From: Candidatus Omnitrophota bacterium
Lineage (GTDB): Bacteria; Omnitrophota; Gorgyraeia; Gygaellales; Profunditerraquicolaceae
Direction: 5' to 3'
DNA length: 64,000 nucleotides
Assembly (NCBI GenBank): GCA_022710715.1
Contig: JAKLGJ010000001.1
Coordinates: 490,041-554,040, forward strand
Shown: one piece after another, positions 6,005-64,000 of the stretch
Layout of the letters: each line of letters opens with the position of its first letter
Numbering within the stretch: position 1 is the first letter of the stretch
Notes under the pieces: generated by a model
Database searches by the model: none
Seen by the model: only the letters and a program-made list of their open reading frames with translations
Told to the model about the DNA's origin: nothing
Program-made: the position numbers and the translations under genes

Positions 6005-6073
6005 CCGGGACTCTCCCGCCATTCCTTTCATTCAGCCGCCGCGCGGGACTCCCTGCGGTCGCCTGTGGATAAC

Positions 6074-19491: not shown

Positions 19492-20247
19492 TCAGACGAT
19501 CGTTTGGTGCGTCTTGTTGGTGCGCAATTTCGCCAGCTCCCAGCTGTATTCGTACAGGTGCAATCCTTTGCTCATTGCGACGATCTCGCCGTCCTCGACG
19601 CCGATTTCGTCAGCCATGTATTTCTTTACCAGCTGCAGCCCTCCCAGGTTGGACGGAAATCCTCCCCAGAGATCCCAGGAGCGGAAATAAAGATAGAAAT
19701 GCAATTTACCGTAGCGCACCCGGGTATCGATCAACCGCAGGCACGGCGGATCGGTCAGCTTGATGTCCGAGGGCATGCCGATCTCCATGATCGCCTGGTT
19801 GGTGCCGAAGCCCTGGGTTTTGTAAATCTTGATCACCTCTTCGACCTGGTTGCAGTCCAGGGGCATCTCCTGGATCATTTCTTTGCCTGCGGCATTCTTC
19901 TGCTTGATCCTGACTTTCGGCTCGACCAGCCGTTCGCCGTAGGTGTAATCTTCGGTTTCGGTCTTGGTTCCGGTGAGCAGATAACTTAAGTAGCCCTGGA
20001 TGTACTCCATGTCCGTAGGCGCCGGGATGTTCATGCCTTCAGGAATGATCGGGATGATCTGATGAGCGGGATGCTTGACGCGAATGACCGCCAGATCGAA
20101 TTCCAGGCGGCGCTGTCCCTCATAACTGCCCCGGGTAATGGTATAAACATGCCCCTTGTCCAGGATGCGGCTCAAGGTTTGGAACCAGGCGTCATCCAGG
20201 TCGAATGAATCGATAAAAACCGGTTCGAGGAACTCTTTTTCGGACAT
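19492..20247 (-). CDS. thyA: thymidylate synthase (ThyA) family protein, divergent/archaeal-like
   Basis: PPCLRLIDTRVRYGKLHFYLYFRSWDLWGGFPSNLGGLQL aligns to ThyA [41 protein letters not shown] including the catalytic Cys. ORF-caller N-terminus overlaps tRNA-Gly; start set to MSEKEF (alternative 20280). Confidence 0.55.
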   Translation of the reverse strand: MSEKEFLEPVFIDSFDLDDAWFQTLSRILDKGHVYTITRGSYEGQRRLEFDLAVIRVKHPAHQIIPIIPEGMNIPAPTDMEYIQGYLSYLLTGTKTETEDYTYGERLVEPKVRIKQKNAAGKEMIQEMPLDCNQVEEVIKIYKTQGFGTNQAIMEIGMPSDIKLTDPPCLRLIDTRVRYGKLHFYLYFRSWDLWGGFPSNLGGLQLVKKYMADEIGVEDGEIVAMSKGLHLYEYSWELAKLRTNKTHQTIV

Positions 20248-41120: not shown

Positions 41121-44100
41121 ATGAGCAAAGGTTCTCTCTATACTAATAAGATTAACTACCACCTTAACAAAGACGGTGAATTTATTATCGAAAATTACAA
41201 TTACGCCAAGCCTCTGGCGAACTTCTTTCCCGGCATTGCCGGGAAATACGGCATTCCCATGTGGGTTTTTTACGTCAACCGCGGGCAGGCGATCAACAGT
41301 TTCGGCACGGACGGTAAAGACTCCGCGATCCTGGAATTCCAGCCTGCCAATAAAGCCTGGCAGACGACTTCTCTCAACGGGTTCCGCACTTTCATCAAGC
41401 TTTCTCAAGCGAACAATGAAATCTTCTATGAGCCGTTCCACGACGGTATCGTTAACCGGTCTTTTGCGATCGCCAATCAGATGGCCATGTCTTCCTGCGA
41501 GCTGCGCCTGGAAGAATCCAACGCTACGCTGGGCTTAAAGACCACGGTAGAATATTTCACTATCCCGCAGGAGTGTTTCGCCGCCCTGGTCAGGATCGTC
41601 ACCATTACCAATACCGCCCGGAAACGCCGTTCGCTGCAGGTGCTTGACGGCTTGCCGCAGATCATTCCCTACGGGATCGCGAATCTCTTTTTGAAGAAGC
41701 TAAGCCGCACCATCGAAGCCTGGATGGGCGTGGAGAATCTCGATACCGGCGTGCCGTTCTACAAGGTTGACGTGGATCCCATCGACCGACCCCAGGTACT
41801 GCATATCAAAGGCGGCAATTTCTATTTGAGTTTTGTCCGGGAAGGCAAGAAAGCCAGAATCATCAAACCCATCGTCGATCCGGATGCGATTTTCGGGCAG
41901 ATCAGCGATTTTTCCTGTCCGCGCGCGTTCCTGGACAAGAAACGCTTTACCTATCCGGCCGGGCAGCAGACTCAATGCAAGACGCCCTGCGGCTTTACTC
42001 CCCTTTCCCTGGATCTGGCGCCGGGAGCATCGCAAACTTTTTGTACGGTGATCGGCCACGCCCGCAATGTCAGGGTAATGAACGCGTCGGTGAAACGCAT
42101 TATCGCTCCCGGGTATCTGGAAGCGAAAAATCAGGCTAACAAACGTTTGATCGCCGAGTTGCAGTCGGATGTCGAGACCGGAAGCAGTTCCTGGGAGTTC
42201 GATTATTACTGCAAACAGACCTATCTGGATAATATCATGCGCGGCGGATACCCGGCGTTGTTCGGTTCCGGCGCCGACGCCAAGGTTTTTTACCTCTACT
42301 CCCGCAAGCACGGAGACCTGGAGCGCGATTATAATAAGTTCCAGATACAGCCGACCTATTTCTCGCAGGGCAACGGTAATTACCGCGACATGAACCAGAA
42401 CCGCAGGTGCGATGTCTGGTTCAATCCCGGTATCAAGGATTTCAACATTATCACGTTTTTCAACCTGCTGCAGTCCGACGGTTTCAATCCTCTGGTGGTC
42501 AAAGGCGCGACGTTCAGCCTGAAAAATAAGGACGCATTCGCCGAACAGCTGCGCCTGATCGCCGCCGAAAAGGATATCGCGTTGATCCTGGGCTTACTGG
42601 AAAAACCGTTTACTCCCGGCCAGGTGATCATGGACATCGAGGAGCATAACTGTAAGCTCAAACTCTCCCACGACGACTTCCTCACCCTGCTCTTCAGCCA
42701 TTCAGTCAAGAATCCGGAGGCTGATCACGGCGAGGGTTTCTGGATCGACCACTGGCATTATAATCTTGATCTGATCGAAAATTTCCTGGCGGTGTATCCG
42801 GAGAAGCTCAAAGAACTGGTCTTCGAGAAGAAAGTATTTACCTTCTACGATAACGATTCGGTAGTCCGGCCGCGCAGCGAAAAATACATACTGCTGGACG
42901 GTCATCCGAAGCAATTACATTCCGTAGCGCATAGTCCGGAAAAGAAAGAGTTGATCGGCGCGAGGCTTTCTTCGCCGCATACCCTGCGCACCGAATACGG
43001 CAAAGGCGATGTTTATACCTGCACCCTGATCAACAAGCTTTTCTGTCTGCTGGTGAACAAACTCGCTTCTTTTGACCCGGCCGGCGCAGGCATCGAAATG
43101 GAAGCGGATAAGCCCAACTGGTTCGACGCGTTGAACGGTTTGCCCGCGCTTTTCGGTTCATCCGCCTGTGAAACATTCGAACTCAAACGGCTGATCCTCT
43201 TTATCCGGGACGCGTTACGCGTTTCCGGGGTACAACAGTTCAGCCTGACCGAAGAAATATACGATTTCCTGCAGGGGCTGACTGCCGCATTGCGCGATTG
43301 GGAGCGCTCCAACGATAAGAATCGGGATATGCTGTATTGGGATGCCAGCGCCACCCTGAAAGAGGAATACCGGGCCAGGACTACCTTCGGCTTCAAGGGC
43401 GGTGAAAAACAGGTTTTTGCCGGAGATATGCCGGCGGTGCTCGAACTCGCTTTGAAAAAGACCGACAGCGGCATAGCTAAAGCGCGGGACGAAAAGAAAA
43501 GCCTTTATTACGGCTATTTCATCAATGAAGTCACGGCTTTCGAGAACATCGACGCAACCCGCATCCGGCCGACTCAATTCGCGCAAAAACGCGTTCCTTT
43601 GTTCCTGGAAGGGCTGATGCACGCCATGCGCCTGACCGAAGACAAAGAACACGCGCATGCCATTTACAAAGCGGTTAAAACCAGCGAGCTGTACGATAAG
43701 GAATTGCAGATGTACCGGGTTACCGCCTCCCTCGCTTCCATGCCGGAAGAAATCGGCCGGTGCACCGCTTTTACCCCGGGCTGGCTGGAGAATCAGTCGA
43801 TCTGGCTGCATATGGAGTATAAATACCTGCTGGAGTTGTTGCGTCAGGGAATCTATGAGGATTTCTTCGCGGATTTCCGGAAAGTGCTTATTCCTTTCCT
43901 GAAACCCGAGCGTTACGGCCGCAGTATCCTGGAGAATTCTTCTTTTCTGGTAAGCAGCGCTTTTCCGTATAAACAATTGCATGGCAACGGTTTCGTTGCC
44001 CGGCTGTCCGGTTCGACCGTAGAATTCTTGAGCATGTGGTTATTGATGAATCTCGGCAGGCAGCCGTTCTTCCTTAATGATAAGCAGGAATTGAACCTGC

Positions 44101-44363
44101 GTTTCGCTCCGGCTTTGCCCGGATGGCTTTTCGACAAAAAAGGCAAAACGTACCGCTTCACCCTGCTGGGCCGCATTCCGGTGGTCTATCATAACCCGCT
44201 GTTGAAGGATGCCTTCGGCAGCCAGGGGGTAAAACCGGTTAAAATCACCCTTAACTATAAGGATAATAAGAGCGTAACTATCCTTTCCGATACCTTATCT
44301 GTCTCGTACGCGCATCAAGTGCGTAACCTGGAAGTTACCTCCATCAAAGTTGATTTGGCTTGA
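41121..44363 (+). CDS. large cytoplasmic (alpha/alpha)6 glycoside phosphorylase/hydrolase-like protein (GH94/cellobiose-phosphorylase-like, tentative)
   Basis: 1080 aa, no signal peptide; NWFDALNG resembles GH94 DWNDGLN general-acid motif; other candidate catalytic stretches GNGNYRDMNQN and GFWIDHWHYNLD. Start set at MSKGSL with AAAGGAG RBS. Confidence 0.35.
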   Translation: MSKGSLYTNKINYHLNKDGEFIIENYNYAKPLANFFPGIAGKYGIPMWVFYVNRGQAINSFGTDGKDSAILEFQPANKAWQTTSLNGFRTFIKLSQANNEIFYEPFHDGIVNRSFAIANQMAMSSCELRLEESNATLGLKTTVEYFTIPQECFAALVRIVTITNTARKRRSLQVLDGLPQIIPYGIANLFLKKLSRTIEAWMGVENLDTGVPFYKVDVDPIDRPQVLHIKGGNFYLSFVREGKKARIIKPIVDPDAIFGQISDFSCPRAFLDKKRFTYPAGQQTQCKTPCGFTPLSLDLAPGASQTFCTVIGHARNVRVMNASVKRIIAPGYLEAKNQANKRLIAELQSDVETGSSSWEFDYYCKQTYLDNIMRGGYPALFGSGADAKVFYLYSRKHGDLERDYNKFQIQPTYFSQGNGNYRDMNQNRRCDVWFNPGIKDFNIITFFNLLQSDGFNPLVVKGATFSLKNKDAFAEQLRLIAAEKDIALILGLLEKPFTPGQVIMDIEEHNCKLKLSHDDFLTLLFSHSVKNPEADHGEGFWIDHWHYNLDLIENFLAVYPEKLKELVFEKKVFTFYDNDSVVRPRSEKYILLDGHPKQLHSVAHSPEKKELIGARLSSPHTLRTEYGKGDVYTCTLINKLFCLLVNKLASFDPAGAGIEMEADKPNWFDALNGLPALFGSSACETFELKRLILFIRDALRVSGVQQFSLTEEIYDFLQGLTAALRDWERSNDKNRDMLYWDASATLKEEYRARTTFGFKGGEKQVFAGDMPAVLELALKKTDSGIAKARDEKKSLYYGYFINEVTAFENIDATRIRPTQFAQKRVPLFLEGLMHAMRLTEDKEHAHAIYKAVKTSELYDKELQMYRVTASLASMPEEIGRCTAFTPGWLENQSIWLHMEYKYLLELLRQGIYEDFFADFRKVLIPFLKPERYGRSILENSSFLVSSAFPYKQLHGNGFVARLSGSTVEFLSMWLLMNLGRQPFFLNDKQELNLRFAPALPGWLFDKKGKTYRFTLLGRIPVVYHNPLLKDAFGSQGVKPVKITLNYKDNKSVTILSDTLSVSYAHQVRNLEVTSIKVDLA

Positions 44364-44368
44364 TTTAT

Positions 44369-44428
44369 AGGGACGTTCCCCAAGGTACCACCCCTGTAAC
44401 CAGGGGTGGTACCTTGGGGAACGTCCCT
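44369..44428. repeat. perfect 28-bp inverted repeat (hairpin, 4-nt loop TAAC) 5 nt after the stop of the 1080-aa gene; arms are copies of a 27-nt element also at 53022-53050
   Basis: AGGGACGTTCCCCAAGGTACCACCCCTG-TAAC-CAGGGGTGGTACCTTGGGGAACGTCCCT read directly; no T-tract follows. Confidence 0.9.
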
Positions 44429-44612
44429 AATATATATACCCGTGGGCTTGAAATCTGTACATTTTGTGTTATACTTAAAGTGTAATAAGCGAACTTTGAC
44501 AGATCAGTTCCTACTGATAAAGGCTAACTAGCAGTAATGCTGGGGCGCAAAGCGACAGTTCTTCTGTTTGTGCAGAAGAAGGCTGCGTTACCAAAGAGGA
44601 CGTATTCCTGAA

Positions 44613-44641
44613 CCCAAGGATATCTCTCTTGGGTTTTTTTG
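44613..44641 (+). terminator. intrinsic terminator-like hairpin (CCCAAG..CTTGGG + T8)
   Basis: Stem cccaag/cttggg followed by ttttttt. Confidence 0.6.
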
Positions 44642-44648
44642 TTCTCTA

Positions 44649-44708
44649 CCCCGGTATTCTGCCTGTCTGCCCATTCGGGCAGACAGAACCTGTTGCCGGG
44701 GTTTTTTA
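44649..44708 (+). terminator. second intrinsic terminator-like hairpin immediately upstream of the small ORF RBS
   Basis: Nested stem CCCCGG...CTGTCTGCCC-ATTC-GGGCAGACAG...CCGGGG followed by TTTTTT. Confidence 0.6.
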
Positions 44709-44721
44709 TTGAGAGGTTGCA

Positions 44722-44988
44722 ATGAACGAACATGACGAAAAAAATCAGCGCGTGGTGACTTTTTTGAACCGGGATGAGGTCGATTTCCTGGATAAACTGG
44801 GCAAAGACGCTCTGTTTTCCAGCGGCTCCAAGCTCTCCCGCGCCAAGCTGATCGCCTGGTTGATCGATATGCTTAAAGGTTTGGGGATTGACGGCAAGGA
44901 TCTTAAGTCGGAAAAAGATCTGGAAGCTCGGGTCCTGGGGGTGTTGAAACAGATTTCCGAACAAAAAGAAAGCTACCCGCCACGGTAG
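44722..44988 (+). CDS. small hypothetical protein, possibly ribbon-helix-helix-like DNA-binding
   Basis: GAGAGG RBS 5 nt before ATG; QRVVTFLNRDEVDFLDKLGK resembles an RHH beta-strand/helix start; 88 aa, Lys-rich C-terminus. Confidence 0.4.
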   Translation: MNEHDEKNQRVVTFLNRDEVDFLDKLGKDALFSSGSKLSRAKLIAWLIDMLKGLGIDGKDLKSEKDLEARVLGVLKQISEQKESYPPR

Positions 44989-45193
44989 ATGCGTAAGAAA
45001 GTCGAGGCCCTGGGGAGGGGAATATTTGGGGTCACTGGATTACCAGGGGTCAGCCTGGGATTGATTCAGGGGGCAGTAGATTTAAGCGTTACGGGGATGG
45101 GGTCCCCGACCACACCAGCCACGGTTAGCAATGCATGATGGACAGCCCGGAGGTAGGGCTCAAACTTGCAACGCCACCAGCCACGGTAGAGTT

Positions 45194-45220
45194 TCATTGT
45201 GCGAGAGCCATCGAAAGGTG
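45194..45220 (+). terminator. intrinsic terminator-like hairpin upstream of the 45256 gene
   Basis: AGAGCCA-tcgaaagg-TGGCTCT followed by TTTTTA. Confidence 0.5.
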
Positions 45221-45255
45221 GCTCTTTTTATCACTCAACTAAGGAGGAATGACTG

Positions 45256-46182
45256 ATGCGTAACGTACTTCTGGCCGCAGTCCTGGCAAGTGTTTTGTGT
45301 TCTTGCGTATACGCTGAACAAGCCACTAAAATGCTGGTAGAAACACCGCCGCAGGAAACGATATTCGTCGCTGAAAACGAAGCGCAGGTGCCTGCTGCCC
45401 GCTATCCCAAATTCGCTGAATTTTCCGGGGATAATCCTAACTGCGAGGCGTATTTACAGACCGATTATTCCGGTTCGGGTGATGAAGCCGACGGAATCGC
45501 CCAGAACGGTTTGAGCCAGGCTCCCTTGAACCTGCGCAGCAAGATGGGGTCGGGATCCGCTACCGGCTCAAAGATGCAGTTTGTCTCGATTAGCGAACAG
45601 GGCAGCAACAAGCCGTTCGCCGTCGACAATTACCAGATCCCTGCGGAGTATCGCAAGACCGCCAAGCTGCTGATCAGCTGGACGGTGCGTATCGAAGGAT
45701 GGGAAACTCCCGGCATGAACATCAGCCCGGGATTATGCAGCAACTGGTATGGAACGTCCATACAGGAATTCCCTGCCAACGACGTCAAGCTGGGGTTGTT
45801 CATTACCGATCATAATCAAGAAGTCCGCAAAGGCGCGGAAGGTTCTTTGACCATTCCTCCCGGCCCGCCGCAGGAGATTATTCAGGTTCCTCCTCCTCCG
45901 CCAAGCCCAAACGTGCCAAGCAATGATGGAAGCTCTCAACCCGCGAATTCTGACTGGGGACCGAACAACGGCGCGCCTCCCTTCGATCTCTCGGATCCGG
46001 TTATCAGCGGCAGTTACCTGTTGAGCCCTTCAGATTTCGAAAACGGGGAATTTCCCGAGGTCATCAGGCGTATAGAGATCAAATGGCAGAATCAGACGTC
46101 GCAGATTCTGGTTTCTCCGGCAAAAATGCGCACCCTTACGATCATGCTTATGCCGACGGGCAAGGAGAGTTCGGGGAATTAG
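45256..46182 (+). CDS. secreted Pro-rich hypothetical protein
   Basis: AAGGAGG RBS; signal peptide MRNVLLAAVLASVLCSCVYA; PPGPPQEIIQVPPPPPSPNVPS linker. Confidence 0.55.
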   Translation: MRNVLLAAVLASVLCSCVYAEQATKMLVETPPQETIFVAENEAQVPAARYPKFAEFSGDNPNCEAYLQTDYSGSGDEADGIAQNGLSQAPLNLRSKMGSGSATGSKMQFVSISEQGSNKPFAVDNYQIPAEYRKTAKLLISWTVRIEGWETPGMNISPGLCSNWYGTSIQEFPANDVKLGLFITDHNQEVRKGAEGSLTIPPGPPQEIIQVPPPPPSPNVPSNDGSSQPANSDWGPNNGAPPFDLSDPVISGSYLLSPSDFENGEFPEVIRRIEIKWQNQTSQILVSPAKMRTLTIMLMPTGKESSGN

Positions 46183-46245
46183 GCGTGTAGCGGGGTTATC
46201 CGACCGCAATGCGAAAGAGCCGTCCTTAGCGACGGCTCTTTCATT

Positions 46246-46560
46246 TTATTCTATTTTTACATCCGTGGAGAAACTGGCATTGTCCGGCGCAAGATTAACC
46301 GTGAAGGACAGGTTGCTGTAGGCGGAGTTCTTGTGCTTGCGCACGTGGCCCAGCTCAACGGTCTGGGTAATGTTGCGGTCCCATAACGTTTTGGACCTGA
46401 CTCCCAACTGTCCCCATTCCAGGCTATGCATAACGGCATTGCCGGTGACCGTGTTCCTGAAATCCGTTTCCACCAGGCTGTGCACGTGGCTGATCGAAAG
46501 GAAAAATGCCACTATGATTGAAGAAATAATGGTTAATATGCCTAAGAGTAATCCGATCAT
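46246..46560 (-). CDS. small membrane protein, last gene of pilin-like operon
   Basis: Hydrophobic N-terminus MIGLLLGILTIISSIIVAFFL; 4-nt start/stop overlap with upstream pseudopilin gene. Confidence 0.4.
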   Translation of the reverse strand: MIGLLLGILTIISSIIVAFFLSISHVHSLVETDFRNTVTGNAVMHSLEWGQLGVRSKTLWDRNITQTVELGHVRKHKNSAYSNLSFTVNLAPDNASFSTDVKIE

Positions 46561-47204
46561 TTGACCACATCGGTAAACCAGAGCCGAAAACCGTCGATTT
46601 TGGCGATCTTTTTCGGCAATCCCGGTACCGCCTTTTTGCCCGTACTTTCAGCAGAAATAGTGACGACCAGAAAATCAGGCTCATTCTCGATCTCAGCCTC
46701 GAATTTCCTGCGGAAATATATTCTGGGTTTGAATTTGCCTTCTACCAGGATGAAATCAATAGATTGTCGTCCGGTCGAACTCACCACCGTGCTTAGCGGT
46801 CCGTCTGATTTGCGCAAGATCAGGTTGCCGCCGGTATCGATGCAATACCGGTAGAGAGCGTTATCAGTGCGGGTGTCGGGCGTAACGGCATTGATATTGT
46901 TTTCGCCTTCGAAAGCGAATTCGGTTTTCATTTCAGTTTCTTGATCCGCGGAGAATACCGAATCAGGGGCGATGGCGATGGCGCTGACACAGCGGCGCTG
47001 AATGTCGTCCAGTGCGTTGTTGATCTGCAGGTACATATTGTAGCGCTCCGCATAGACAGTAATCTGCCTGGAAGCAAAATTCAGCAGCGTGAAGACAGCG
47101 CCGACAACCACGACCCCCATGATCATCCCGATGATCAGCTCGATGAGGGTGAACGCTTTACGGTTTGTAGTCCCTGGCAGTCTTGGATTCATAGGCGACC
47201 GCAT
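46557..47204 (-). CDS. pseudopilin-like protein with prepilin-type N-terminus (Ala at -1)
   Basis: NRKA|FTLIELIIGMIMGVVVVGAVF: T4P/T2SS class III leader with Glu+5 but Ala instead of Gly at -1. Confidence 0.6.
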   Translation of the reverse strand: MRSPMNPRLPGTTNRKAFTLIELIIGMIMGVVVVGAVFTLLNFASRQITVYAERYNMYLQINNALDDIQRRCVSAIAIAPDSVFSADQETEMKTEFAFEGENNINAVTPDTRTDNALYRYCIDTGGNLILRKSDGPLSTVVSSTGRQSIDFILVEGKFKPRIYFRRKFEAEIENEPDFLVVTISAESTGKKAVPGLPKKIAKIDGFRLWFTDVVK

Positions 47205-48141
47205 TTATGGAGATCTCCTTGAGTGTTACTTTGCCTTCCACGAGATATTTGTCCGCATAGAACCTGTTCACTGTGTTGATATCTTTGCACCATTGCACCG
47301 TCATCGTATGCGGGCCCGGCGGGACAGTATCCATTCCGAAACTGACGCTGATAAACGGCTGGGTTAAGATCGGGGTGCGGCTGACCGGCCCTACGGGAAC
47401 GCCGTCAAGCAGAAAACGGGTCCAGATCGTAGCATGCGGCAGCGCCTGTTCGATGGTGGTTTTACTCGCTTTGACCACAAGATTGACCATGATCAGTAAA
47501 TCCTTGGGGACTTTAAAATCAAACGTCAGCGCAGCCGGAGGAATTATTTCATAATCGCCGTTTCCGGGGACTGTACTGTCAGGCAGATTGAGCTGGGTGC
47601 GGGTCGCCTGAGAGAGCGCGAATTCGTTTATCCAGGCCCCCGCAGGCACTGCCGGGGTCGATGCGTCATCGGGGTCATATTCTTTATTGACCGATTCGGT
47701 ATGGATATAGGGATACGGCATGGTGTTTTTCAGGCGGATTTCTTTCCGCGCACCGCCAGGATCGGCATAAGAAACATTAAGGGTCAGGTTTTTATAGGGG
47801 ATTTCAACCGGGGTGGTGGGATTTTTCAAGGTGCCCGGGGTGACGTCCATGGTCCAGCTGAAAACCAGCGCGTCGCTATAGTCCGGTTCATTGAACTGCC
47901 ATTGTCCCTGATACGTCCCCGGTTCCAGGGCCGCATCGTAATAGGACCTGGCCATGTATTGTTTCATCTTGAGGGCTGCAAAGCTGACGGCGCGGGATTT
48001 ATACTCTGCCTGTTTGAGGTTGGTAAACCCCCCCACCAGCGCGGATACGACAAAAACTGCCACCAGGGAGAAGATCACCACTACGACGATGATCTCCAGA
48101 AAGGTCATAGCTTTTGTACGGGATGAAAGGCGCATGCTCAT
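47158..48141 (-). CDS. pseudopilin-like protein with prepilin-type N-terminus (Ala at -1), 327 aa
   Basis: RTKA|MTFLEIIVVVVIFSLVAVFVV leader-like segment with Glu+5; large C-terminal domain. Confidence 0.55.
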   Translation of the reverse strand: MSMRLSSRTKAMTFLEIIVVVVIFSLVAVFVVSALVGGFTNLKQAEYKSRAVSFAALKMKQYMARSYYDAALEPGTYQGQWQFNEPDYSDALVFSWTMDVTPGTLKNPTTPVEIPYKNLTLNVSYADPGGARKEIRLKNTMPYPYIHTESVNKEYDPDDASTPAVPAGAWINEFALSQATRTQLNLPDSTVPGNGDYEIIPPAALTFDFKVPKDLLIMVNLVVKASKTTIEQALPHATIWTRFLLDGVPVGPVSRTPILTQPFISVSFGMDTVPPGPHTMTVQWCKDINTVNRFYADKYLVEGKVTLKEISINAVAYESKTARDYKP

Positions 48142-49502
48142 TGCCTGTTGCGCAGGATGATAAGTTCCGCCCAGCTTAATTCCATATGCATATTCTGGTA
48201 GTCTGACGGCGGGATAAAGTAATAGACGACAACGGTGTATTTTCTGCTGCTTTTAAGTTTATCTTTCGGCACGCTGGTCAATCCGTTGATGGAGAAGCTC
48301 GAACGCATCGAGCGGGCATGGAACGGGCTTTGATGAATAAGCGTCCTGCTCGTATCAGAGTCCGGGTCTCCTTCGAAGACTTTAATCATCGAATAAAAGA
48401 GGATATCCTTGAGCGGGTCGATCTCGTTGCGCAGAGGGCATTCGGCCTGCAATTGCCAGATGATCGATACTTTTTCGTTGCTCTTGGCTACGAAAGAGTA
48501 CGTCAGTGCGGTCTCATCGATAGGTTCAAAACAGTGTTTGGCGGTATCCGCATTGGTAATGAACTCATTATATTGCCTGATAGTTTCCTGGCATCCGGGA
48601 AGCGTGAAATTGCGGCACTGTGTGTTATTGATACGGGTTTCGCAACTGAGGCATACCTGTATGCCCATGCCGTTGCACAGGTCTCTGCGGCAGCAATCCA
48701 CTCCTCTGCGGCATTCTTCCCATTGTGTGGTGTAGTCGTGGCACGCCTGGACGTACTGACGGAAGTTCGCAGTCGGGGAATATTTAAAACATAAAGGTGG
48801 TTGGCAGTATTCCACGTCAGGGTCGATCGGCTCAGTCGGTTTAGCCGGCGGCGGATCTTTGGGATCGGGCGGCGGCGGCGGTGGATCCAGCTTATCGATG
48901 TCGTAATACGGTTCGACAGGACAGCTGCCTACGGTTGCGCAATTGATGTGGCAGAAGGGTTGCGGTTCGTAATCGTCTTCCGGGCAATACCAGAACCCGT
49001 CACGGCTTTCGCACGAGCCGTTGGGTGCCGGAGGGTTAGCCGGGCAACCGCGCTGCTGGCAGTGCGGTATACCTTCAGCGCAGGGATTGGTGATCGCTGC
49101 CGGACAGGTGACGGCCGGGCAGTCGTTGACGTTGAACGGCACATCCGCGCAGTCATATATGCTGTTTTCGAACTTTGTGCAACGCCGGTACATCGAACCG
49201 TCGGGATAGAAAACCAGGCAGCAATCAGGGCAGGACCGCCACAGCTGCATGCAGTAATTACAGTTCTGCATATCGATCAGGAACTGGTTTTTGCAGGCGG
49301 TCGATTCGTAGAGCTTTAACGGCGGGGAAAAATTCTTTCGCACGGTTTGCATCGAATGATCGCGGGGGATATATTTGATGGTGGTTTCTGATTTTTTTTC
49401 TGCCAGCGCATCATGAGCGCCTGCCAGGCATGCGCAAAAGAAAACAACCGCCATCGTGAGTCTCCGACCTGCGATAGCGGCTGTAGGTTTTCTCATCAAC
49501 AT
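48138..49502 (-). CDS. secreted cysteine-rich protein with poly-proline linker (candidate tip adhesin)
   Basis: Signal peptide; ~50 Cys in first ~300 residues (CNYCMQLWRSCPDCC, CPAVTCPAAITNPCAEGIPHCQQRGCP); DPPPPPPDPKDPPPAKPTEP linker; 4-nt overlap with downstream pseudopilin. Confidence 0.55.
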   Translation of the reverse strand: MLMRKPTAAIAGRRLTMAVVFFCACLAGAHDALAEKKSETTIKYIPRDHSMQTVRKNFSPPLKLYESTACKNQFLIDMQNCNYCMQLWRSCPDCCLVFYPDGSMYRRCTKFENSIYDCADVPFNVNDCPAVTCPAAITNPCAEGIPHCQQRGCPANPPAPNGSCESRDGFWYCPEDDYEPQPFCHINCATVGSCPVEPYYDIDKLDPPPPPPDPKDPPPAKPTEPIDPDVEYCQPPLCFKYSPTANFRQYVQACHDYTTQWEECRRGVDCCRRDLCNGMGIQVCLSCETRINNTQCRNFTLPGCQETIRQYNEFITNADTAKHCFEPIDETALTYSFVAKSNEKVSIIWQLQAECPLRNEIDPLKDILFYSMIKVFEGDPDSDTSRTLIHQSPFHARSMRSSFSINGLTSVPKDKLKSSRKYTVVVYYFIPPSDYQNMHMELSWAELIILRNRQ

Positions 49503-49716
49503 GAACCCTCGGTGTGCGTTACGAGTATCTTCAATAAAGTACGCTGGTGGACTGCTGTTGATGAAAAAATTCTATCATAACCTTTCTCTTTTGCAAGCAA
49601 TTAATTGAAAGTAAGCGTGTTATTTGTTGATCTTTATGTCCGAAGTCAGGCTGGTGTTGCGGAAATCCTGCTCTACCAGCCCCTGCACGTGCGATATGGC
49701 GAAGGTGCAACAATTT

Positions 49717-52700
49717 TCAGTTAATGATGATCGCGTTGGTGAACGCGGTCTGCTTGCCCTGTTTGTCGAACCCGAAGAAGCGTATGCGCAGTCTCTTGGC
49801 GATGAACTCGGAATTAAAGGTCATGGACAGGTAGGTGCCGTCCGCGGAGATCATCAGCGGGTCCAGGTCCCAGAACTCTGTTTTATCGTCATAGGTCACT
49901 TCCGCCCAGAAATCGTTGAGTTGTCCGGGATACAGGTGTCCCCCGCCCACAAAGTCGATCTTTACGTAGCCGGTAGAGTCCAGAGTCGCGGTGGCCGGGA
50001 TCACGGGCATGGTCACCAGGGCCGGCGGGTTGTTCACGGTGATGGCGATGAGGTTGGACATGCCGGTTTGCACATTGCTGGTGTCGAACGCGTAGAAACG
50101 CATCTGCACTGTTTTATTGTGGAATTCCGGTCCGAATTCCATGGAGATCGACCTGCCGTCCGCCGCAAGCATTCCCGGATTGAGGTCCCAGTAATAGGTT
50201 TGATTATCGTAGGTCACCTGCGCCCAGAGGTCGCTGATCTGGCTGGCCAGGAGCGTGCCGTTGGAGAACGCGATCGATATCTTGCCGTTGACGTCCGTAG
50301 TCCCAGCGGAGGGTATCTGCGGGATGGCCAGGACGGTGGTCAGCGAGTGCACGGTGATGGCGATGGGATTGGAGAACCCGGTCTGCACGTTGTTCGCGTC
50401 GAAGGCGTAGAATTCCATGGTCACTGTTTTTCCGTTGAAATCGGGGGTGAACTCCATGGTCAGGGAATGCCCGTCTTCGGCGATCATCCCCGGATCGAGG
50501 TCCCAGTAAAGCGTCCGGCCGTCATAGGTCACCCGCGCCCAGAGATCCCGGATCTGTCCGGCGTCGAGCGTTCCGCTGGAAAACGGGATGACGATCTTTC
50601 CCTGATTGTCGGTGGTCCCGGTGGACGGGATGACCGGCATGGTTACACTCTGGGGGTTGGAATGTACGGTGATGGCGATGGGATTGGTGAATCCGGTCTG
50701 GACGTTGTTGGTGTCGAAGGCGTAAAACTGCATGGTCACGGTCTTGCCGTCGAATTCAGGCGTGAATTCCATGGTTACCGATTTTCCGTCCGCGGCGAGC
50801 ATTCCCGGGTTAAGATCCCAGTAACGCGTCTGGCCGTCGTAGGTCACCTGCGCCCAGAGGTCGCTGATCTGGCTGGCCAGGAGCGTGCCGTTGGAGAACG
50901 GGATGACGATCTTTCCCTGGTTGTCGGTAGTTCCGGTAGACGGGATCACCGGCATACTGATATTCTGCGGGTTGGAATGCACGGTGATGGTGATGGCATT
51001 GGAGAATCCGGTCTGCACGTTGTTGGTGTCGAAGGCGTAGAATTTCATGGATACGGTTTTGCCGTCAAATTCCGAGCCGAATGCCACGGTCACGGACTTT
51101 CCGTCCGCGGCGAGCATCTCCGGATTGAGGTCCCAGTAATGCGGTTCGCCGTCGTAGGTCACTTCTGCCCAGAGGTCGTTGATCTGGCTGGCCAGGAGCG
51201 TGCCTTCATTGAACGGGATGACGATCGTGCCTTGAGTGTCGGTAGTCCCGGTGGCGGGAATGACCGGCATGGTCAGGCCCGTAGAGCTTGAATGCACGGT
51301 GATGGCAATGGGATTGGAGAATCCGGTCTGCACGTTGCTCTTGTCGAACGCGTAGAATTCCATGGAGACGGTTTTACCGTCGAACTCGGAGCCGAATTCC
51401 ATGGTCAGGGATTTACCGTCCGCGGCGAGCATCGCCGGGTCGAGATCCCAGTAGTAGGTTTTACCGTCGTAGGTCACCTGGGCCCAGAGATCGTTGATCT
51501 GACTGGCTAAGAGCGTGCCGCTGGTAAATGAAACGACGATCTTGCCGGTCGGATCGGTGTTGCCGGTTGCCTGTACGGTCGGCATGGTCACTATCGAAGT
51601 CGACGGCGTCACTTTGAAGGTGAGCTGGTTGCCTACGGTGGTTTGCGCGCCGGTGGAAGCGGAATAACCGTACAATTGCATGGTTATCTGCTTGTTGTTG
51701 AATGCGCTGTCAAAGACCATGGAAAAGGTTCTTCCGTCCGAGGAAATCATCGATGCGTCCAGGTCCCAGTACTCGGTTTTGCCGTCATAGGAAACGATGG
51801 CCCAGAGGTCGGATAACTGCGACGGCAGCATCGGGCTGCTGAAGGTCGCGGTGATCTTGCCGTTGAGGTCGGTTTCCGCCGGAACGGTAGCCGAAGGCAT
51901 GGTCAGGCTGCCGGATGATGAAACGGTGAACGTCACCGGGTTGCTGTAATTGGTCTGCGCGCCGTCGCCGGCAGCGTAGCCGTACAGTTCCATGGTCACC
52001 TGCTTGCCGTTGAATTTGGGGTCGAATTTCATGCTGAACGTTTTTCCATCCGGCGCGATCATCCCGGGAGCGAGCTTCCAGTACTCGGTTTTGCCGTCAT
52101 AGGAGATCTTGGCCCAGAGCGCGTTCAATTGTTCGGGCAGTATCGTTTGAGAAAAAGTGACGGTGATCCGGCCGGCTTCGTTGGTTTGCGCCGGGGCCGT
52201 GCTTGCGGGCATGGTTACGGTGGAGGGTACATTGATTTTGAAGGTGACGTTATTGCTGAAATTGGTCTGCTCGTTCGTCCCCGCGCTGAAGCCGTAGAGC
52301 GCCATCTGGAACGTCGTGCCGTTGAATGAGGGATTGAACTGCATGGAAAATGATTTTCCGTCCGCGGCGATCATCGCCGGGTCGAGCTTCCAGTATTCGG
52401 TTTTGCCGTTATAGGTGACCCGCGCCCACAGCTGGCTTAGATCCGCGGGTAACAACGTGCCCTGGAATGTCAGTACGATCGTGCCGTTGGTGGTGGTAGT
52501 GTCGGGCGCGCTGACTGCCGGGATCGCGGCGTCGGCCGCTGCGGCAGCCGCCAACTCCTGGTTTTTCGTATCTACGGCGTTCTGATTGGCTGCTTCCAGT
52601 TCCGGGCTGTAAACGCCCATTTCTTTCTGGTCCTCCTGCTCCTGCGGCGTCGGGGCTGATTGGGCGAATACCGGTCCGGCGCTAAGGAATAGAGAGATGG

Positions 52701-52737
52701 AAACGCAGGTGAGAATGTGCATGGATAGTTTTTTCAT
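49717..52737 (-). CDS. large secreted tandem-repeat protein (candidate adhesin; ~9 x ~105-aa repeats)
   Basis: Signal peptide MKKLSMHILTCVSISLFLSAGPVFA; repeats with conserved DLWAxVTYDGKTxYWDLxPxMLAADGKSxTMEFxxEFDGKTVxMxFYAFD; middle repeats near-identical. Confidence 0.7.
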   Translation of the reverse strand: MKKLSMHILTCVSISLFLSAGPVFAQSAPTPQEQEDQKEMGVYSPELEAANQNAVDTKNQELAAAAAADAAIPAVSAPDTTTTNGTIVLTFQGTLLPADLSQLWARVTYNGKTEYWKLDPAMIAADGKSFSMQFNPSFNGTTFQMALYGFSAGTNEQTNFSNNVTFKINVPSTVTMPASTAPAQTNEAGRITVTFSQTILPEQLNALWAKISYDGKTEYWKLAPGMIAPDGKTFSMKFDPKFNGKQVTMELYGYAAGDGAQTNYSNPVTFTVSSSGSLTMPSATVPAETDLNGKITATFSSPMLPSQLSDLWAIVSYDGKTEYWDLDASMISSDGRTFSMVFDSAFNNKQITMQLYGYSASTGAQTTVGNQLTFKVTPSTSIVTMPTVQATGNTDPTGKIVVSFTSGTLLASQINDLWAQVTYDGKTYYWDLDPAMLAADGKSLTMEFGSEFDGKTVSMEFYAFDKSNVQTGFSNPIAITVHSSSTGLTMPVIPATGTTDTQGTIVIPFNEGTLLASQINDLWAEVTYDGEPHYWDLNPEMLAADGKSVTVAFGSEFDGKTVSMKFYAFDTNNVQTGFSNAITITVHSNPQNISMPVIPSTGTTDNQGKIVIPFSNGTLLASQISDLWAQVTYDGQTRYWDLNPGMLAADGKSVTMEFTPEFDGKTVTMQFYAFDTNNVQTGFTNPIAITVHSNPQSVTMPVIPSTGTTDNQGKIVIPFSSGTLDAGQIRDLWARVTYDGRTLYWDLDPGMIAEDGHSLTMEFTPDFNGKTVTMEFYAFDANNVQTGFSNPIAITVHSLTTVLAIPQIPSAGTTDVNGKISIAFSNGTLLASQISDLWAQVTYDNQTYYWDLNPGMLAADGRSISMEFGPEFHNKTVQMRFYAFDTSNVQTGMSNLIAITVNNPPALVTMPVIPATATLDSTGYVKIDFVGGGHLYPGQLNDFWAEVTYDDKTEFWDLDPLMISADGTYLSMTFNSEFIAKRLRIRFFGFDKQGKQTAFTNAIIIN
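49950..52600. repeat. tandem coding repeats, period ~315 bp (about 9 copies), inside the 49717-52737 gene
   Basis: Protein repeats of ~105 aa read directly; adjacent middle copies nearly identical. Approximate boundaries. Confidence 0.7.
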
Positions 52738-52774
52738 GGGGCCCCCTTTTTTGACTTGTACACGCGATACTTTA

Positions 52775-52795
52775 CAGGTACTATTATACCACTTT
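52775..52795 (-). promoter_or_regulatory. extended -10 promoter (TGgTATAAT) for the repeat-protein gene
   Basis: Minus-strand GTGGTATAAT ~40 nt upstream of ATG 52737; AAGGGGG RBS before ATG. Confidence 0.45.
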
Positions 52796-52809
52796 TTTAA
52801 ACAAGTGAT

Positions 52810-52851
52810 TAATAAAATAAAAAACCAGAACGACCCTTGGTCATTCTGGTT
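52810..52851 (-). terminator. intrinsic terminator (minus strand) between OM-protein gene and repeat-protein promoter
   Basis: Stem AACCAGAA/TTCTGGTT with 13-nt loop, followed on the minus strand by TTTTATTTTATT. Confidence 0.55.
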
Positions 52852-52974
52852 TAACGGCTGGTAACCTCCTTACCAGTTAATCAAGTATAGCATATTTCAG
52901 GGGCGGATGCCAGCAAGCGCGTCTTCCCGGCGGCATGAGAGCGTATCCGGCGGTTCTGTGCGCTCTCCCCTTGC

Positions 52975-53009
52975 ATAAAACAACAGGGGCGCATCGTACG
53001 ATGCGCCCC
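52975..53009 (-). terminator. GC-rich perfect palindrome GGGGCGCATCGTACGATGCGCCCC directly after the OM-protein gene stop
   Basis: 24-nt perfect palindrome followed on the minus strand by TGTTGTTTTATG. Confidence 0.5.
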
Positions 53010-53021
53010 GAAAAAATCTAT

Positions 53022-53050
53022 CAGGGGTGGTACCTTGGGGAACGTCCCCT
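53022..53050. repeat. third copy of the 27-nt element CAGGGGTGGTACCTTGGGGAACGTCCC (single arm)
   Basis: Identical over 27 nt to the right arm at 44401-44427; 4 nt after stop of the 53054-55867 gene. Confidence 0.85.
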
Positions 53051-53053
53051 CTT

Positions 53054-55867
53054 TTAGAACTTGTTGCGGTAGAACAAGCGGACGATGTGCTGGGTGTCGA
53101 TGACGTCCTGGCTGCCGCCGTACGGATCTTCCGACTGGCTCCAGAAGAGCTGCTTTCCGGAAATGCCGTATTGCAGGATCAGCTTGCTGTTCTCGGTGGG
53201 CAGATAATACAATTCCGCGAAGAAATTGTGATGATCGCGCAGATCGGTGTACCCGTCTTGCAGACGCTGTACGTCTTTCCAGAGAGAATAGACGTATTTG
53301 GTATTCATTCCCCACTTCTTGTTGATCTGGTAGGTGATCTCGATGCCGGCGTGGTTCATGTTGCCGTCAAGCTGGCCGGCGCTCTCGAATTCATTGCGGG
53401 TATAATCCAGATAAATATTGAGTCTGTCCGTAGGATTGAGATCCACTCCCACCCGGAAAATATCGTAGAACGGATACGGCGGTTGCGGGAACAGTTGCTG
53501 GTCATAGACGAAGGGATTTTCGTCGCGGAACCAGGTGCCGTAAGCGTTATAGAGATATGAGGGCTGGGAGGAATTGAAAACCGCGCGCGGGAAATTTTCA
53601 TAGGCCATGGTGTAATCGTTGGTGTGTTCCCAGATGCCGTGCGTGGTCAGCCAGTCGGTCCAGGCGTATTCCAGCCCCACGGATCCGGTTTTGAGATCGA
53701 TATCCTTGCCGTCGTCGATGGGATCGGAAGACCAGTCGTTCAGCGGCCGGCCGCTGACGGAATCATAGAGGAACGGATCGATCCCCCCCTTGCTTTTGGG
53801 CATATCCTGGTAAATACCGAGCAACTTGGAAGTGAGGCGGTCGGTAATATGCCAGGTGACTTCGTCGCGTCCCACGCTCTCGATGTATTTTCCGTTGACG
53901 CTGTGCACGTTGCGCGCGTCAAAAAGGTTTTCCAGCCGGTCGACCCAGTTCGCTTCCAGGCGGAAACCCGCCGCGTCGCGTCCGGCGTCGATGCCGTCGC
54001 CGATAGCGAATGGCGCGATGCTGTCCCAGCTCAATGTGGGCTCGGACAGGCCGCGGTAGGTGTAGGGGAACGGCTTGCGGAAATGCAGATGCCTGGCCCA
54101 GAAAGCGTCGTCGCGGGTCTGGCGATACGAAGCTACTCCCGGTGAAAAGCCTTCGTCCATATGCGCGCCGTAGAAGCGGAATTTCGCCAGGAAATCGTCG
54201 CCTTTTTCCGGTTTGATCTGATTATATCCGTATTCCAGGTCGATGATGCTGTCCATGGGGAATCGCCCGACCAGGGAGAAATAATACGCGTTGCCTCTCT
54301 CTTTTGTTTTGAACTGATTGCTGGTTATGTCGAAGGTGTTTTGCGCATGCGCCACTTCCGCGGAAGCCATCAGGCCGTCCATGAACTCGTATTTTGCGTC
54401 TACGCCGGCAGTATGATTGCGGGCGTCGGTTTCGTCGTTCCGGTCCGGGTTGAATCCCATGCGATAGGTGTAGGTCGCGCCTACGCCGAGATTATCCGTG
54501 ATCTTGGTTTTTGCCCGGGCGGCGGACGTAATATTGTCCACCTCGCTGTATTCCTGCCAGGGATTCTTGGGCGAAGCCACGGTCCAGGCGATGGATGAGG
54601 TATCGGTAGGTTTGAGCGTGGCGGAAAATCCGCGTAACAAAGTCAGCACCGTGGAATCGCTGTCTTGCGCTAAAGAAGCCAGGGAATCATCCCAGTACCC
54701 GCGGGTAAAATCATGGTTCGGGGTGCCGGAATTGTAATTGCCGTGCGTCCATTGCGATACCCAGGGGCTGACCTGCCACCAGTCGCGGTGATTGGACAGG
54801 CCCAGAGGATCGTCCGTGCTTAAGGCCTGGCTTTGATAAGCCAGCGGAAATACCCGCAGGTTGAAATTCTCGGTGGCGTATTCCACCCACAATTCGCGTA
54901 ACGGCATGAAGGTGCGTTCGATTTCCGTTTCCGGGATGGTAAACGTGTTGCCCCAGGTGGACGTGATGGTCGTGGCCCGGACTTTACCGTCATGGACTTC
55001 GAGTTCGGGTATATTGAAAGAATCGCCGTTCTGCGTGGTGTGAACCGTCTGATTGACGATGCGGTTGGTGTTTCCCCAGTACTTTAATTCGATCTCGGCG
55101 GAATCCCCGGTGCTGCCGACCACGGTGAATTTTTTGCTCGTGCCGGTATAGCTCCAGGGGTCAAGGGTGACGTTGGTGTGGAACTTGAAGCCGAACTCGC
55201 TGGTGGAGTCGAGATTGAGGCGCAGCCGGTCGAAAATATACGGATCGTACGTATTAAAACGGTTATCATAAGCGGAATTGCTAAGCATGCGCCAGTTCAG
55301 TTCGCTTAAATTCTTGTTCGCCCGGTTCCAGATAGCTTCGCCGGAAGTTGCAGCGGCTGCCAGTTGCACTTCTCCGCTTAATTTGATCGCGGGTTGGGCT
55401 TGTTCGGTAGCGCGTCCTGCGAACGCTTCTTCTTCCCGGGGTTGATAACCGGCTGCAGGAGCGGCAGCTGCGGCGCCGGCAGTGTATGAAGGTTCGTAGG
55501 CAACTTGCCGGCGGGTCGCAGGAGCGGTGTACGAAGGCTCATAGTCTATTTCCGGGGTAGTTTCATGCGTTGTCGCGCGGGATACGTATTGTTTTTTAGG
55601 GTAAGCCGTACTGCTGGAAGTGGCATGAGTAGAGCTGCAGCGCTGGATGGCAGCGATATACTCCAGGGCGGTCTCATTATGCGGATCGACGATCAGTGCT
55701 TTCTTGAATTCGTGTAACGCCTCCGCGAAATTGCCTTTTTCATAGTATTCAATGGCTATTTCGCAGAGATAATCCGCGCCCAGAGAGCTGGCATAAGCTT
55801 TCTGGCCTAACGCCATTGGCAAGAGAAGAACGGTCAGGACTAGAACTGAAAATCTGCGGATATTCAT
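53054..55867 (-). CDS. large outer-membrane protein: N-terminal TPR region plus C-terminal beta-barrel-like domain (hypothetical)
   Basis: Signal peptide, TPR-like helices (YYEKGNFAEALHEFKKALIVDPHNETALEYIAAIQ), long Y/G/N/D-rich region, C-terminal aromatic end ...LFYRNKF; no secretin motif seen. Confidence 0.5.
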   Translation of the reverse strand: MNIRRFSVLVLTVLLLPMALGQKAYASSLGADYLCEIAIEYYEKGNFAEALHEFKKALIVDPHNETALEYIAAIQRCSSTHATSSSTAYPKKQYVSRATTHETTPEIDYEPSYTAPATRRQVAYEPSYTAGAAAAAPAAGYQPREEEAFAGRATEQAQPAIKLSGEVQLAAAATSGEAIWNRANKNLSELNWRMLSNSAYDNRFNTYDPYIFDRLRLNLDSTSEFGFKFHTNVTLDPWSYTGTSKKFTVVGSTGDSAEIELKYWGNTNRIVNQTVHTTQNGDSFNIPELEVHDGKVRATTITSTWGNTFTIPETEIERTFMPLRELWVEYATENFNLRVFPLAYQSQALSTDDPLGLSNHRDWWQVSPWVSQWTHGNYNSGTPNHDFTRGYWDDSLASLAQDSDSTVLTLLRGFSATLKPTDTSSIAWTVASPKNPWQEYSEVDNITSAARAKTKITDNLGVGATYTYRMGFNPDRNDETDARNHTAGVDAKYEFMDGLMASAEVAHAQNTFDITSNQFKTKERGNAYYFSLVGRFPMDSIIDLEYGYNQIKPEKGDDFLAKFRFYGAHMDEGFSPGVASYRQTRDDAFWARHLHFRKPFPYTYRGLSEPTLSWDSIAPFAIGDGIDAGRDAAGFRLEANWVDRLENLFDARNVHSVNGKYIESVGRDEVTWHITDRLTSKLLGIYQDMPKSKGGIDPFLYDSVSGRPLNDWSSDPIDDGKDIDLKTGSVGLEYAWTDWLTTHGIWEHTNDYTMAYENFPRAVFNSSQPSYLYNAYGTWFRDENPFVYDQQLFPQPPYPFYDIFRVGVDLNPTDRLNIYLDYTRNEFESAGQLDGNMNHAGIEITYQINKKWGMNTKYVYSLWKDVQRLQDGYTDLRDHHNFFAELYYLPTENSKLILQYGISGKQLFWSQSEDPYGGSQDVIDTQHIVRLFYRNKF

Positions 55868-60283: not shown

Positions 60284-60349
60284 CTTTAGTTATCCACAGG
60301 CGACCGAAGGGAGTCCGGGACTCCCTTCGGTCGCCTGTGTCTAAGTCGG

Positions 60350-63950: not shown

Positions 63951-64000
63951 TTTATTCTCCTATCGGGTATGAGCCGAGAATTTTGAGAAACGTACAGTTC

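Follow-up and report, generated by a model that had tools for sequence, protein, structure and literature searches.

Short extragenic repeats resembling the terminal repeats of RAYT-like transposases beside a pilin/adhesin locus of Candidatus Omnitrophota

Background

REPINs consist of two repetitive extragenic palindromic (REP) units that are inverted with respect to each other, fold into a hairpin and are moved by a REP-associated tyrosine transposase (RAYT), and single units are seen as products of their decay (PMC3337134). Di Nocera et al. (2013) separated RAYTs, which are associated with GTAG-tagged palindromic REPs, from the RAYT-like TIRYTs, which have long, non-palindromic terminal inverted repeats (TIRs; PMC3733652). 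TIRYT TIRs often carry the motif GGGGWSAS, and copies of them are dispersed as singles, dimers and clusters (PMC3733652). TIRYTs form subclass 2.1 of the TnpA-Y1 proteins in the classification of Quentin et al. (2018; PMC6006769) and Group 1 of the RAYTs of Bertels (PMC5581495). Proteins of this subclass are recognized by the motifs NHVH or NH[YF]H, W[EQ] or FQ, and YIELNP or Y[IV]HLNP; they have a C-terminal helix-turn-helix (HTH)-like tail (Bac_DnaA_C, HTH_23 or HTH_28) and a median length of 238 aa (PMC6006769). Flanking of Y1 genes by repeats of this kind has been described in several studies (PMC3733652, PMC6006769, PMC3337134). Here we compare these systems with a 27-nt element that occurs three times in a 64,000-nt stretch of DNA, called the window below, from a Candidatus Omnitrophota bacterium (contig JAKLGJ010000001.1, positions 490,041 to 554,040), where its copies lie on both sides of an 8.6-kb segment with riboswitch, adhesin and pseudopilin genes.

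The three copies are, in all likelihood, dispersed short non-coding repeats of the REP/REPIN type, and they most closely resemble the TIRs of RAYT-like tyrosine transposases (TIRtron/TIRYT systems). An original prediction had offered the elements as REP-like bidirectional terminators, as sites that delimit an exchangeable surface-antigen cassette, or as recognition sites for a nucleic-acid-binding factor. The delimited pilin/adhesin cassette is replaced here by a REP/REPIN-like identification that can be tested. This identification links the repeat with RAYT-like Y1 transposases that make up a large, uncharacterised clade in the uncultivated phyla Omnitrophota and Aminicenantes.

A doublet and a singlet in the window

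The 27-mer CAGGGGTGGTACCTTGGGGAACGTCCC matches the window at exactly three places, 44370-44396 on the minus strand and 44401-44427 and 53022-53048 on the plus strand. No match was found in 100 dinucleotide-preserving shuffles, even with 3 mismatches permitted, which bears out the threefold occurrence that had been predicted. Elsewhere in the window there are no degenerate copies of the 24-nt family core (see below) in a scan allowing up to 6 mismatches, and an Rfam gathering scan of the window places no family over the repeat.

The first two copies form a palindrome (44368-44429). Its left arm (44368-44396, minus strand) comprises the 27-mer and an outer TA, and directs its outer end toward the stop codon of a 1080-aa gene. 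A 4-nt loop, TAAC (44397-44400), connects it to the right arm (44401-44429, plus strand), with which it pairs. The perfect inverted repeat and the 4-nt loop are as predicted, but the arms are 29 nt in length and not 27-28 nt, so that the complete hairpin is a perfect 29+4+29 structure of 62 nt with an outer TA at each side. The third copy (53022-53049, plus strand) agrees with the pan-genomic core up to position 53049 (…GTCCCC) and resides in the 3' untranslated region (UTR) of a minus-strand 937-aa gene, between the stop codon (53054-53056) and the terminator of this gene. Both loci are 5 nt from a stop codon, and the placement of copies a few bases past gene ends was therefore predicted correctly. 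The palindrome is a compact doublet and the third copy a singlet, probably a half-element.

The palindrome is not an assembly artefact, because independent assemblies (ENA L089 and JGI L104) span the doublet with identical sequence and a second, near-identical doublet is present in the same genome. A Logan contig (L090, from SRR4244739) stops exactly at the palindrome centre, which corresponds to window position 44401. Perfect doublets thus act as assembly breakpoints in short-read metagenomes.

As single-stranded DNA (ssDNA) the doublet hairpin has a folding energy of -39 kcal/mol (z=-12.6), and as RNA of -64 kcal/mol (z=-9.9). The singlet folds weakly. The sole fold of the repeat unit is a small 5-bp GGGGA/TCCCC hairpin in its outer 13 nt (GGGGACGTTCCCC). 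Stuttered partial copies that consist of this outer module only (…TTGGGGAACGTCCCCAAATTC TTGGGGAACGTCCCC…) are found beside full copies in L004 (~6320-6345), L009 (~2250-2290), L067 (~4440-4500), L077 (~6470-6500) and L013 (~814-860), and the rare sibling hairpins GGGGACAGTCCCC and GGGGACTGTCCCC are also present. These copies and siblings suggest that the 13-nt hairpin is a separable unit.

A dispersed extragenic family

An exact scan of GTDB representatives, with one genome per species, finds the 20-nt core of the repeat in 88 stretches from 19 assemblies. Alignment of the copies yields a sharply bounded 24-nt core, GGTGGTACCTTGGGGAACGTCCCC. Exact 23-mers number 112 in 19 assemblies of Aminicenantes, Omnitrophota and others, and at least 59 of them are in a single metagenome-assembled genome (MAG), CAYFVQ01. 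This MAG is named 'uncultured Eubacteriales', a label that must be a placeholder because its sequence has 79-87% nucleotide identity over kilobases to Aminicenantes-labelled MAGs. The loci that host the repeat have a GC content of 40-60%. Unrelated metagenome contigs with a GC content of 57-62% likewise carry the exact 27-mer of the window, CAGGGG prefix included. A metagenome scan with the 25-mer sub-variant of the window returned 12 contigs that do not include the window's own contig, and so provides no genome-wide count for the host.

Copies of the repeat avoid genes. Only 10 of the 112 (9%) lie inside open reading frames (ORFs) of at least 150 aa, compared to 77% of random positions. Neighbouring copies are usually paired in the '- then +' orientation seen in the window palindrome (21 of 25 pairs), and the commonest spacers between paired copies are 72-77 nt. 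The repeat is probably selfish DNA that has lodged after gene ends. Scans of viral contigs for this 24-nt core family, and for a second family (GGACTCCCTTCGGTCGCCTGTG…) described below, gave no matches, and a full-text literature search on the motif strings GGGGAACGTCCCC and GGGGACGTTCCCC retrieved no paper.

The REP-like character that the original prediction proposed is thus supported insofar as the family is dispersed, extragenic and arranged in inverted doublets, but not in the terminator role that accompanied it (see below). Abundance of the 27-mer at ordinary gene ends, with no structural variation of the DNA between copies, had been named as the outcome that would speak against a special function at this locus. 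Related genomes show this outcome, and the host shows it in part.

The host sequence examined covers ~84 kb, namely the window, which matches a 1.62-Mb JGI contig at 100% identity, and ~10 kb on each side. A third locus lies to the right, ~3.7 kb past the window end at position 64000. It is a 59-nt doublet with a TAC loop (6195-6253 of L110). The ~10 kb to the left of the window contain no repeat copy. The TAC-loop doublet resides inside the RNase P RNA gene rnpB (6067-6426 of L110; RF00010, 170.5 bits), where cmscan reports a long insertion in the P12 hairpin. Its presence in rnpB indicates that the repeat is dispersed in the host genome and is not tied to the pilin locus.

Association with Y1/HUH transposase genes

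In several contigs, inverted copies of the repeat with their outer CCCC ends pointing outward surround an ORF of ~195 aa. These include an Aminicenantes-type MAG (L051), an Omnitrophota MAG (L084/L103), and L095 and L102. A protein search added more diverged members, of which L111 and L113 are flanked likewise by inverted copies. In L112, an upstream copy alone abuts the Y1 gene, and on the downstream side ~800 nt separate the stop codon from the next core-like copy. With this one-sided case, the set comprises seven contigs with distinct proteins, which share 52-76% identity in pairwise comparisons. The flanking cores differ at 0-5 of 24 positions. Their outer 13 nt are intact in all flank-aligned copies but two, the right copy of L102 (GGGGACATCCCCC) and the left copy of L111, which like the window doublet starts AGGGACG. 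The left arm of the window doublet has the same orientation as the left-hand copies beside Y1 genes.

The enclosed proteins match Pfam family PF01797 (Y1_Tnp) with E=1e-17 and align over the motifs [NT]H[LV]H, FQNRY and YIE[RK]NP. No C-terminal HTH is detected in them, and PF01797 is the sole match even in a permissive Pfam scan at E<=10. At E<=1e-30 the protein family has 1,912 clusters. Among the best 120 of these, almost all proteins are 195-197 aa long, and many are annotated as Omnitrophica 'transposase'. Many transposase genes of the family are located on contigs shorter than 3 kb. The proposal that the elements are recognition sites for a nucleic-acid-binding factor thereby acquires a candidate factor, the ~195-aa RAYT-like Y1/HUH transposase whose gene the copies flank.

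By analogy to related systems, the Y1 enzyme would recognize the outer mini-hairpin together with the adjacent GGTACCACC-containing sequence on ssDNA. It would then cut and rejoin DNA without duplication, like the TnpA proteins of IS608 and ISDra2 and the E. coli TnpA-REP protein. Such events would spread doublets into tolerated sites, for example, just past stop codons. The model for binding and cleavage of ssDNA that contains the cognate repeat is E. coli TnpA-REP (4ER8; PMC3479197). If the identification is correct, a complete source contig would be expected to contain tens of extragenic copies, mostly compact doublets, together with a single Y1 gene between copies of the CAGGGGTGG… type.

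The same inverted arrangements could be produced by a classical miniature inverted-repeat transposable element (MITE), in which the copies would be the TIRs of a DDE-type insertion sequence that moves by a cut-and-paste mechanism. The copies form inverted termini of 24-29 nt around short spacers, recurrently of 72-77 nt in Aminicenantes MAGs, and TA dinucleotides are found at both sides of the window doublet. However, matches of 3 nt or more, as target-site duplications would leave, occur in 0-1 of 17 doublets at any length or boundary offset, and 2-nt matches are at chance level. The lack of target-site duplications fits HUH single-strand transposition and speaks against a DDE-type MITE. In addition, the gene enclosed by inverted copies is of the Y1/HUH type in six contigs and of the DDE type in none, and L112 is one-sided. 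We therefore give almost no credence to a MITE.

One inverted core pair encloses a different gene. In L035, a Syntrophaceae-labelled MAG contig, copies 1.15 kb apart (344-1531) surround a DUF6544/DUF6920 gene. This pair was considered as an autonomous element and rejected, as it holds DUF6544 and no transposase. The example illustrates that a host gene can be bracketed by chance, or be carried between copies. Readings of the 27-mer as a sigma-54 promoter, a Tn3-type inverted repeat, an integron attC site or a CRISPR repeat were dropped in view of the Y1 association and the lack of target-site duplications.

Several observations weigh against the identification as a RAYT-associated repeat. The host genome has three loci in ~84 kb, with no others documented. 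There is no Y1 gene in the 64-kb window and ~20 kb of extra flank, and the cognate enzyme of the host is putative. Mobility of the repeat and its recognition by the enzyme are deduced from their association and from homologous systems. The fold of a single unit is no stronger than that of shuffled sequences (z about -1); the unit is not a convincing palindrome and, unlike canonical REPs, has no GT[AG]G at its foot. The best protein matches favour the identification, but with low scores. REP_Tyr_transpos (REP-associated tyrosine transposase), the best NCBIfam model, scores 69.6 bits where the curated equivalog cutoff is 80. The best PDB match, E. coli TnpA-REP (4ER8), aligns across the HuH, FQ/WQ and Y..NP motifs at a weak E value of 0.04.

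Between genomes, the 24-nt core is almost identical, although identity among the associated proteins falls to ~50%. Horizontal transfer may have carried one RAYT-repeat system with a near-invariant 24-nt recognition sequence through Omnitrophota and Aminicenantes at least, a proposal that we advance tentatively and to which we give somewhat less than even weight. Horizontal spread of this kind would contrast with the picture of REPIN-RAYT systems as lineage-specific and vertically inherited.

The variable segment between the repeat loci

The original prediction also raised the possibility that the copies are recombination or inversion sites of an exchangeable surface-protein cassette. They might also be the ends of a composite mobile unit that encompasses the 8.6-kb riboswitch/adhesin/pseudopilin segment. 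The 27-nt identities at the edges of the segment are both direct (44401/53022) and inverted (44370/53022), and the segment itself is variable among relatives. It is bounded by two conserved anchor genes. One is the 1080-aa gene (41121-44363, plus strand), which is conserved in L106 and L107. The other is the 937-aa gene (53054-55867, minus strand), which encodes a tetratricopeptide repeat (TPR)/outer-membrane-like protein (OMP). Homologues of the 937-aa protein belong nearly all to Candidatus Omnitrophota, the closest with 52-55% identity.

In L106, the convergent anchor genes are separated by 37 nt (12397-12435) and the entire 8.6 kb is missing. This sequence also lacks the 206-aa pilin gene next to gatC. 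In L107 (12785-19885), four different genes and two small ORFs occupy the space between the anchors, along with a c-di-GMP-I-GGC riboswitch (19678-19759, minus strand), and the gene set includes a 965-aa T2SS-T3SS_pil_N/SdrD_B-like protein. In L108 (6963-9795), the OMP gene is followed by a gene of 905 aa. In Omnitrophota, the interval that separates the 937-aa OMP gene from the ~1080-aa gene is a variable locus for surface proteins.

However, this variability appears to be independent of the repeats. The homologous junctions of L106, L107 and L108 contain no repeat copy or remnant with up to 7 of 24 mismatches permitted, whether or not the segment is present. The window and L107 have the same operon architecture with a c-di-GMP-I riboswitch, and they share a promoter (CTTGAAA…TGTGTTATACTT) and leader, to which the window doublet is a mere addition, upstream of the -35 element. 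This promoter is kept despite a GC content of 53% versus 34%. Every contig that carries the flanking genes, be it from JGI, ENA, NCBI or Logan assemblies, is collinear with the window and in a single orientation, a result that covers near-identical (99.9-100%) assemblies, the only contigs found to encode the window proteins. A Pfam search finds in the segment no recombinase domain of the kind expected near invertible DNA. The relatives that were fetched (L106-L108) are distant, with at most 55% amino-acid identity, whereas near relatives are essentially identical, which leaves a small probability for a repeat-mediated event in this lineage. The comparison of relatives that had been suggested as a check on the cassette has a divided outcome: presence or absence of the segment does vary among species, but the near-identical contigs show no inversion, and the fetched relatives are free of repeats.

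The repeat is also present in rnpB, and other genomes have it at dozens of intergenic sites with no relation to this locus, which argues against boundary sites, and we consider the exchangeable cassette very unlikely. A related idea is that the edge copies serve as ends for the Y1 enzyme, or for recombination between copies, to excise, invert or transfer a c-di-GMP-controlled surface-protein module. We hold this mechanism to be similarly improbable; if true, it would account for the absence, in the closest relative fetched, of precisely the DNA that lies between the anchors. Both repeat loci of the window occupy the first intergenic gap after a conserved anchor gene, where such elements are tolerated. 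The presence of repeat loci on both sides of the pilin/adhesin segment is most likely a coincidence.

Transcription signals and neighbouring genes

The doublet lies between the stop codon of the 1080-aa gene and a regulatory region. A strong promoter-like site, TTGAAA-16-TATACT with the TG of an extended -10 element (44448-44475, plus strand; 10 of 12 matches), begins 19 nt downstream of the doublet. It is followed on the same strand by a c-di-GMP-I riboswitch aptamer (44512-44595; 63 bits) and the terminator-like expression platform of this riboswitch (44610-44636). Farther downstream are an 88-aa ORF (44722-44988) and a 308-aa ORF (45256-46182).

A possible alternative gives the copies a primary, selected role in transcription, in which they would terminate it in both directions, insulate against read-through or stabilise mRNA as 3' hairpins, and makes their transposon ancestry irrelevant here. 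In other bacteria, REPs are known to make the 3' ends of mRNA more stable or to attenuate transcription (PMC3733652, PMC3337134), and the RNA hairpin of the doublet is very stable and located upstream of the promoter of the riboswitch unit. Once inserted, the doublet would be transcribed as a very stable 3' hairpin that may protect the upstream 1080-aa mRNA or impede read-through into the riboswitch-controlled promoter. The original prediction rightly reported that no T-tract follows the doublet. There is no U-tract next to it on either strand, as TAATATATAT follows on the plus strand and TATAAATCAA on the minus strand, and the structure therefore does not qualify as an intrinsic terminator. 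The 937-aa OMP gene has a canonical intrinsic terminator of its own (53009-52986, minus strand), which consists of a 10-bp GC-rich stem and a T-tract and is separate from the repeat. Because this terminator comes after the weakly folding singlet, the singlet is a 3'-UTR passenger and not a terminator. The bidirectional terminator role is accordingly not sustained for either locus. Furthermore, the L107 promoter and operon do without such a hairpin, and a copy within rnpB cannot be a terminator. A selected transcriptional role is unlikely on these grounds, and it would in any case be compatible with an origin in the repeat family, so that it is no true alternative.

The proximity of the doublet to the -35 element, 19 nt from its end, could also suggest an operator for a dimeric regulator of the riboswitch-led promoter, with the third copy as a half-site. 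At 62 bp, however, the palindrome is much larger than an operator. The identical core is found in many unrelated genomes and contexts, and the orthologous promoter in L107 has no doublet. An operator is thus extremely improbable.

Other features of the window involve repetition of different kinds. The large 'adhesin' ORF (49717-52737; 1006 aa) contains ~9 tandem repeats of ~315 nt (105 aa) with 63-75% identity (49795-52435, minus strand), and several assemblies break within it. Its Pfam matches are Phage_T4_Gp30_7 and HAT1_C only, which are weak and apparently spurious. A second, unrelated repeat family (GGACTCCCTTCGGTCGCCTGTG…) likewise comprises a doublet (60285-60344) and a singlet (6046-6077), and its sites are between co-directional housekeeping genes. 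The outer end of this repeat carries the only two perfect DnaA boxes of the window (TTATCCACA), compared to 0.27 expected. Some RAYT-like proteins have DnaA_C-like tails (PMC6006769), which makes these DnaA boxes intriguing. The fetched loci contain no matches to the second family.

Comparison with known systems

The TIRtron description is the best fit for the present system. As in TIRtrons, a RAYT-like Y1/HUH gene lies between long, non-palindromic TIRs that start with GGGG, copies of the TIRs are dispersed, and the taxonomic distribution is patchy over several phyla. One departure is the outer end of the repeat, GGGGACGT, which matches the TIRtron motif GGGG[AT][CG]A[CG] (GGGGWSAS) at 6 of 8 positions. 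Sibling variants of this outer end, GGGGACAG and GGGGACTG, are found 6 times each in the same loci, versus 152 occurrences of the main form. The proteins resemble subclass 2.1 in having FQ in place of WQ and a YIExNP motif (here YIE[RK]NP), a similarity but not an identity that comes from comparison of motifs and not from a phylogeny. Unlike that subclass, with its median of 238 aa, they are 195-197 aa long and have no detectable C-terminal domain of the HTH or DnaA_C type. With at least 59 exact copies in one incomplete MAG, the repeat exceeds the ~12 occurrences of flanking 16-mers reported for Group 1. A further difference is that the 24-nt core is nearly invariant across phyla.

REPIN-RAYT systems of Pseudomonas and Enterobacteria were reportedly treated by Nunvar et al. 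in 2010. The repeat shares with these systems (Bertels & Rainey 2011; PMC3116915, PMC3337134) its extragenic inverted doublets that form long hairpins. Further points of agreement are singlets that are likely decayed halves, the same repeat beside a single Y1 gene, the lack of target-site duplications, and a preference for positions just downstream of genes. Inheritance of canonical REPs is vertical, and each is confined to a species or genus, whereas the present core is identical in Omnitrophota and Aminicenantes. A canonical REP unit is also an imperfect palindrome with a 5' GT[AG]G foot, and the present unit offers a 5-bp mini-hairpin only and no GTAG. Because it lacks both a palindromic unit and the GT[AG]G foot, the element is filed as a RAYT/TIRYT-associated repeat and not as a canonical REP.

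Elements of the IS200/IS605 family, such as IS608 and ISDra2, have a PF01797 Y1/HUH core, small subterminal hairpins, no target-site duplications and a presumed ssDNA mechanism in common with the present system. However, the ends of IS200/IS605 elements are not mutual inverted repeats, and each element moves as a whole, with multi-copy transposase genes of high identity. The tyrosine motif also differs, being Y...NP (RAYT-type) here and Y...Q in IS200/IS605.

The rnpB insertion has a parallel in heterocystous cyanobacteria, in which short tandemly repeated repetitive (STRR) heptamers are said, in work by Vioque from 1997, to be embedded in helix P12 of RNase P RNA. In both cases, a genome-wide repeat is tolerated in the variable P12 helix of rnpB. 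Unlike the tandem heptamers of cyanobacteria, the Omnitrophota insertion is a transposase-associated repeat in the form of a 59-nt doublet with a perfect hairpin. This tolerated insertion in P12 and the compact doublet form of 59-62 nt are distinctive features of the repeat described here.

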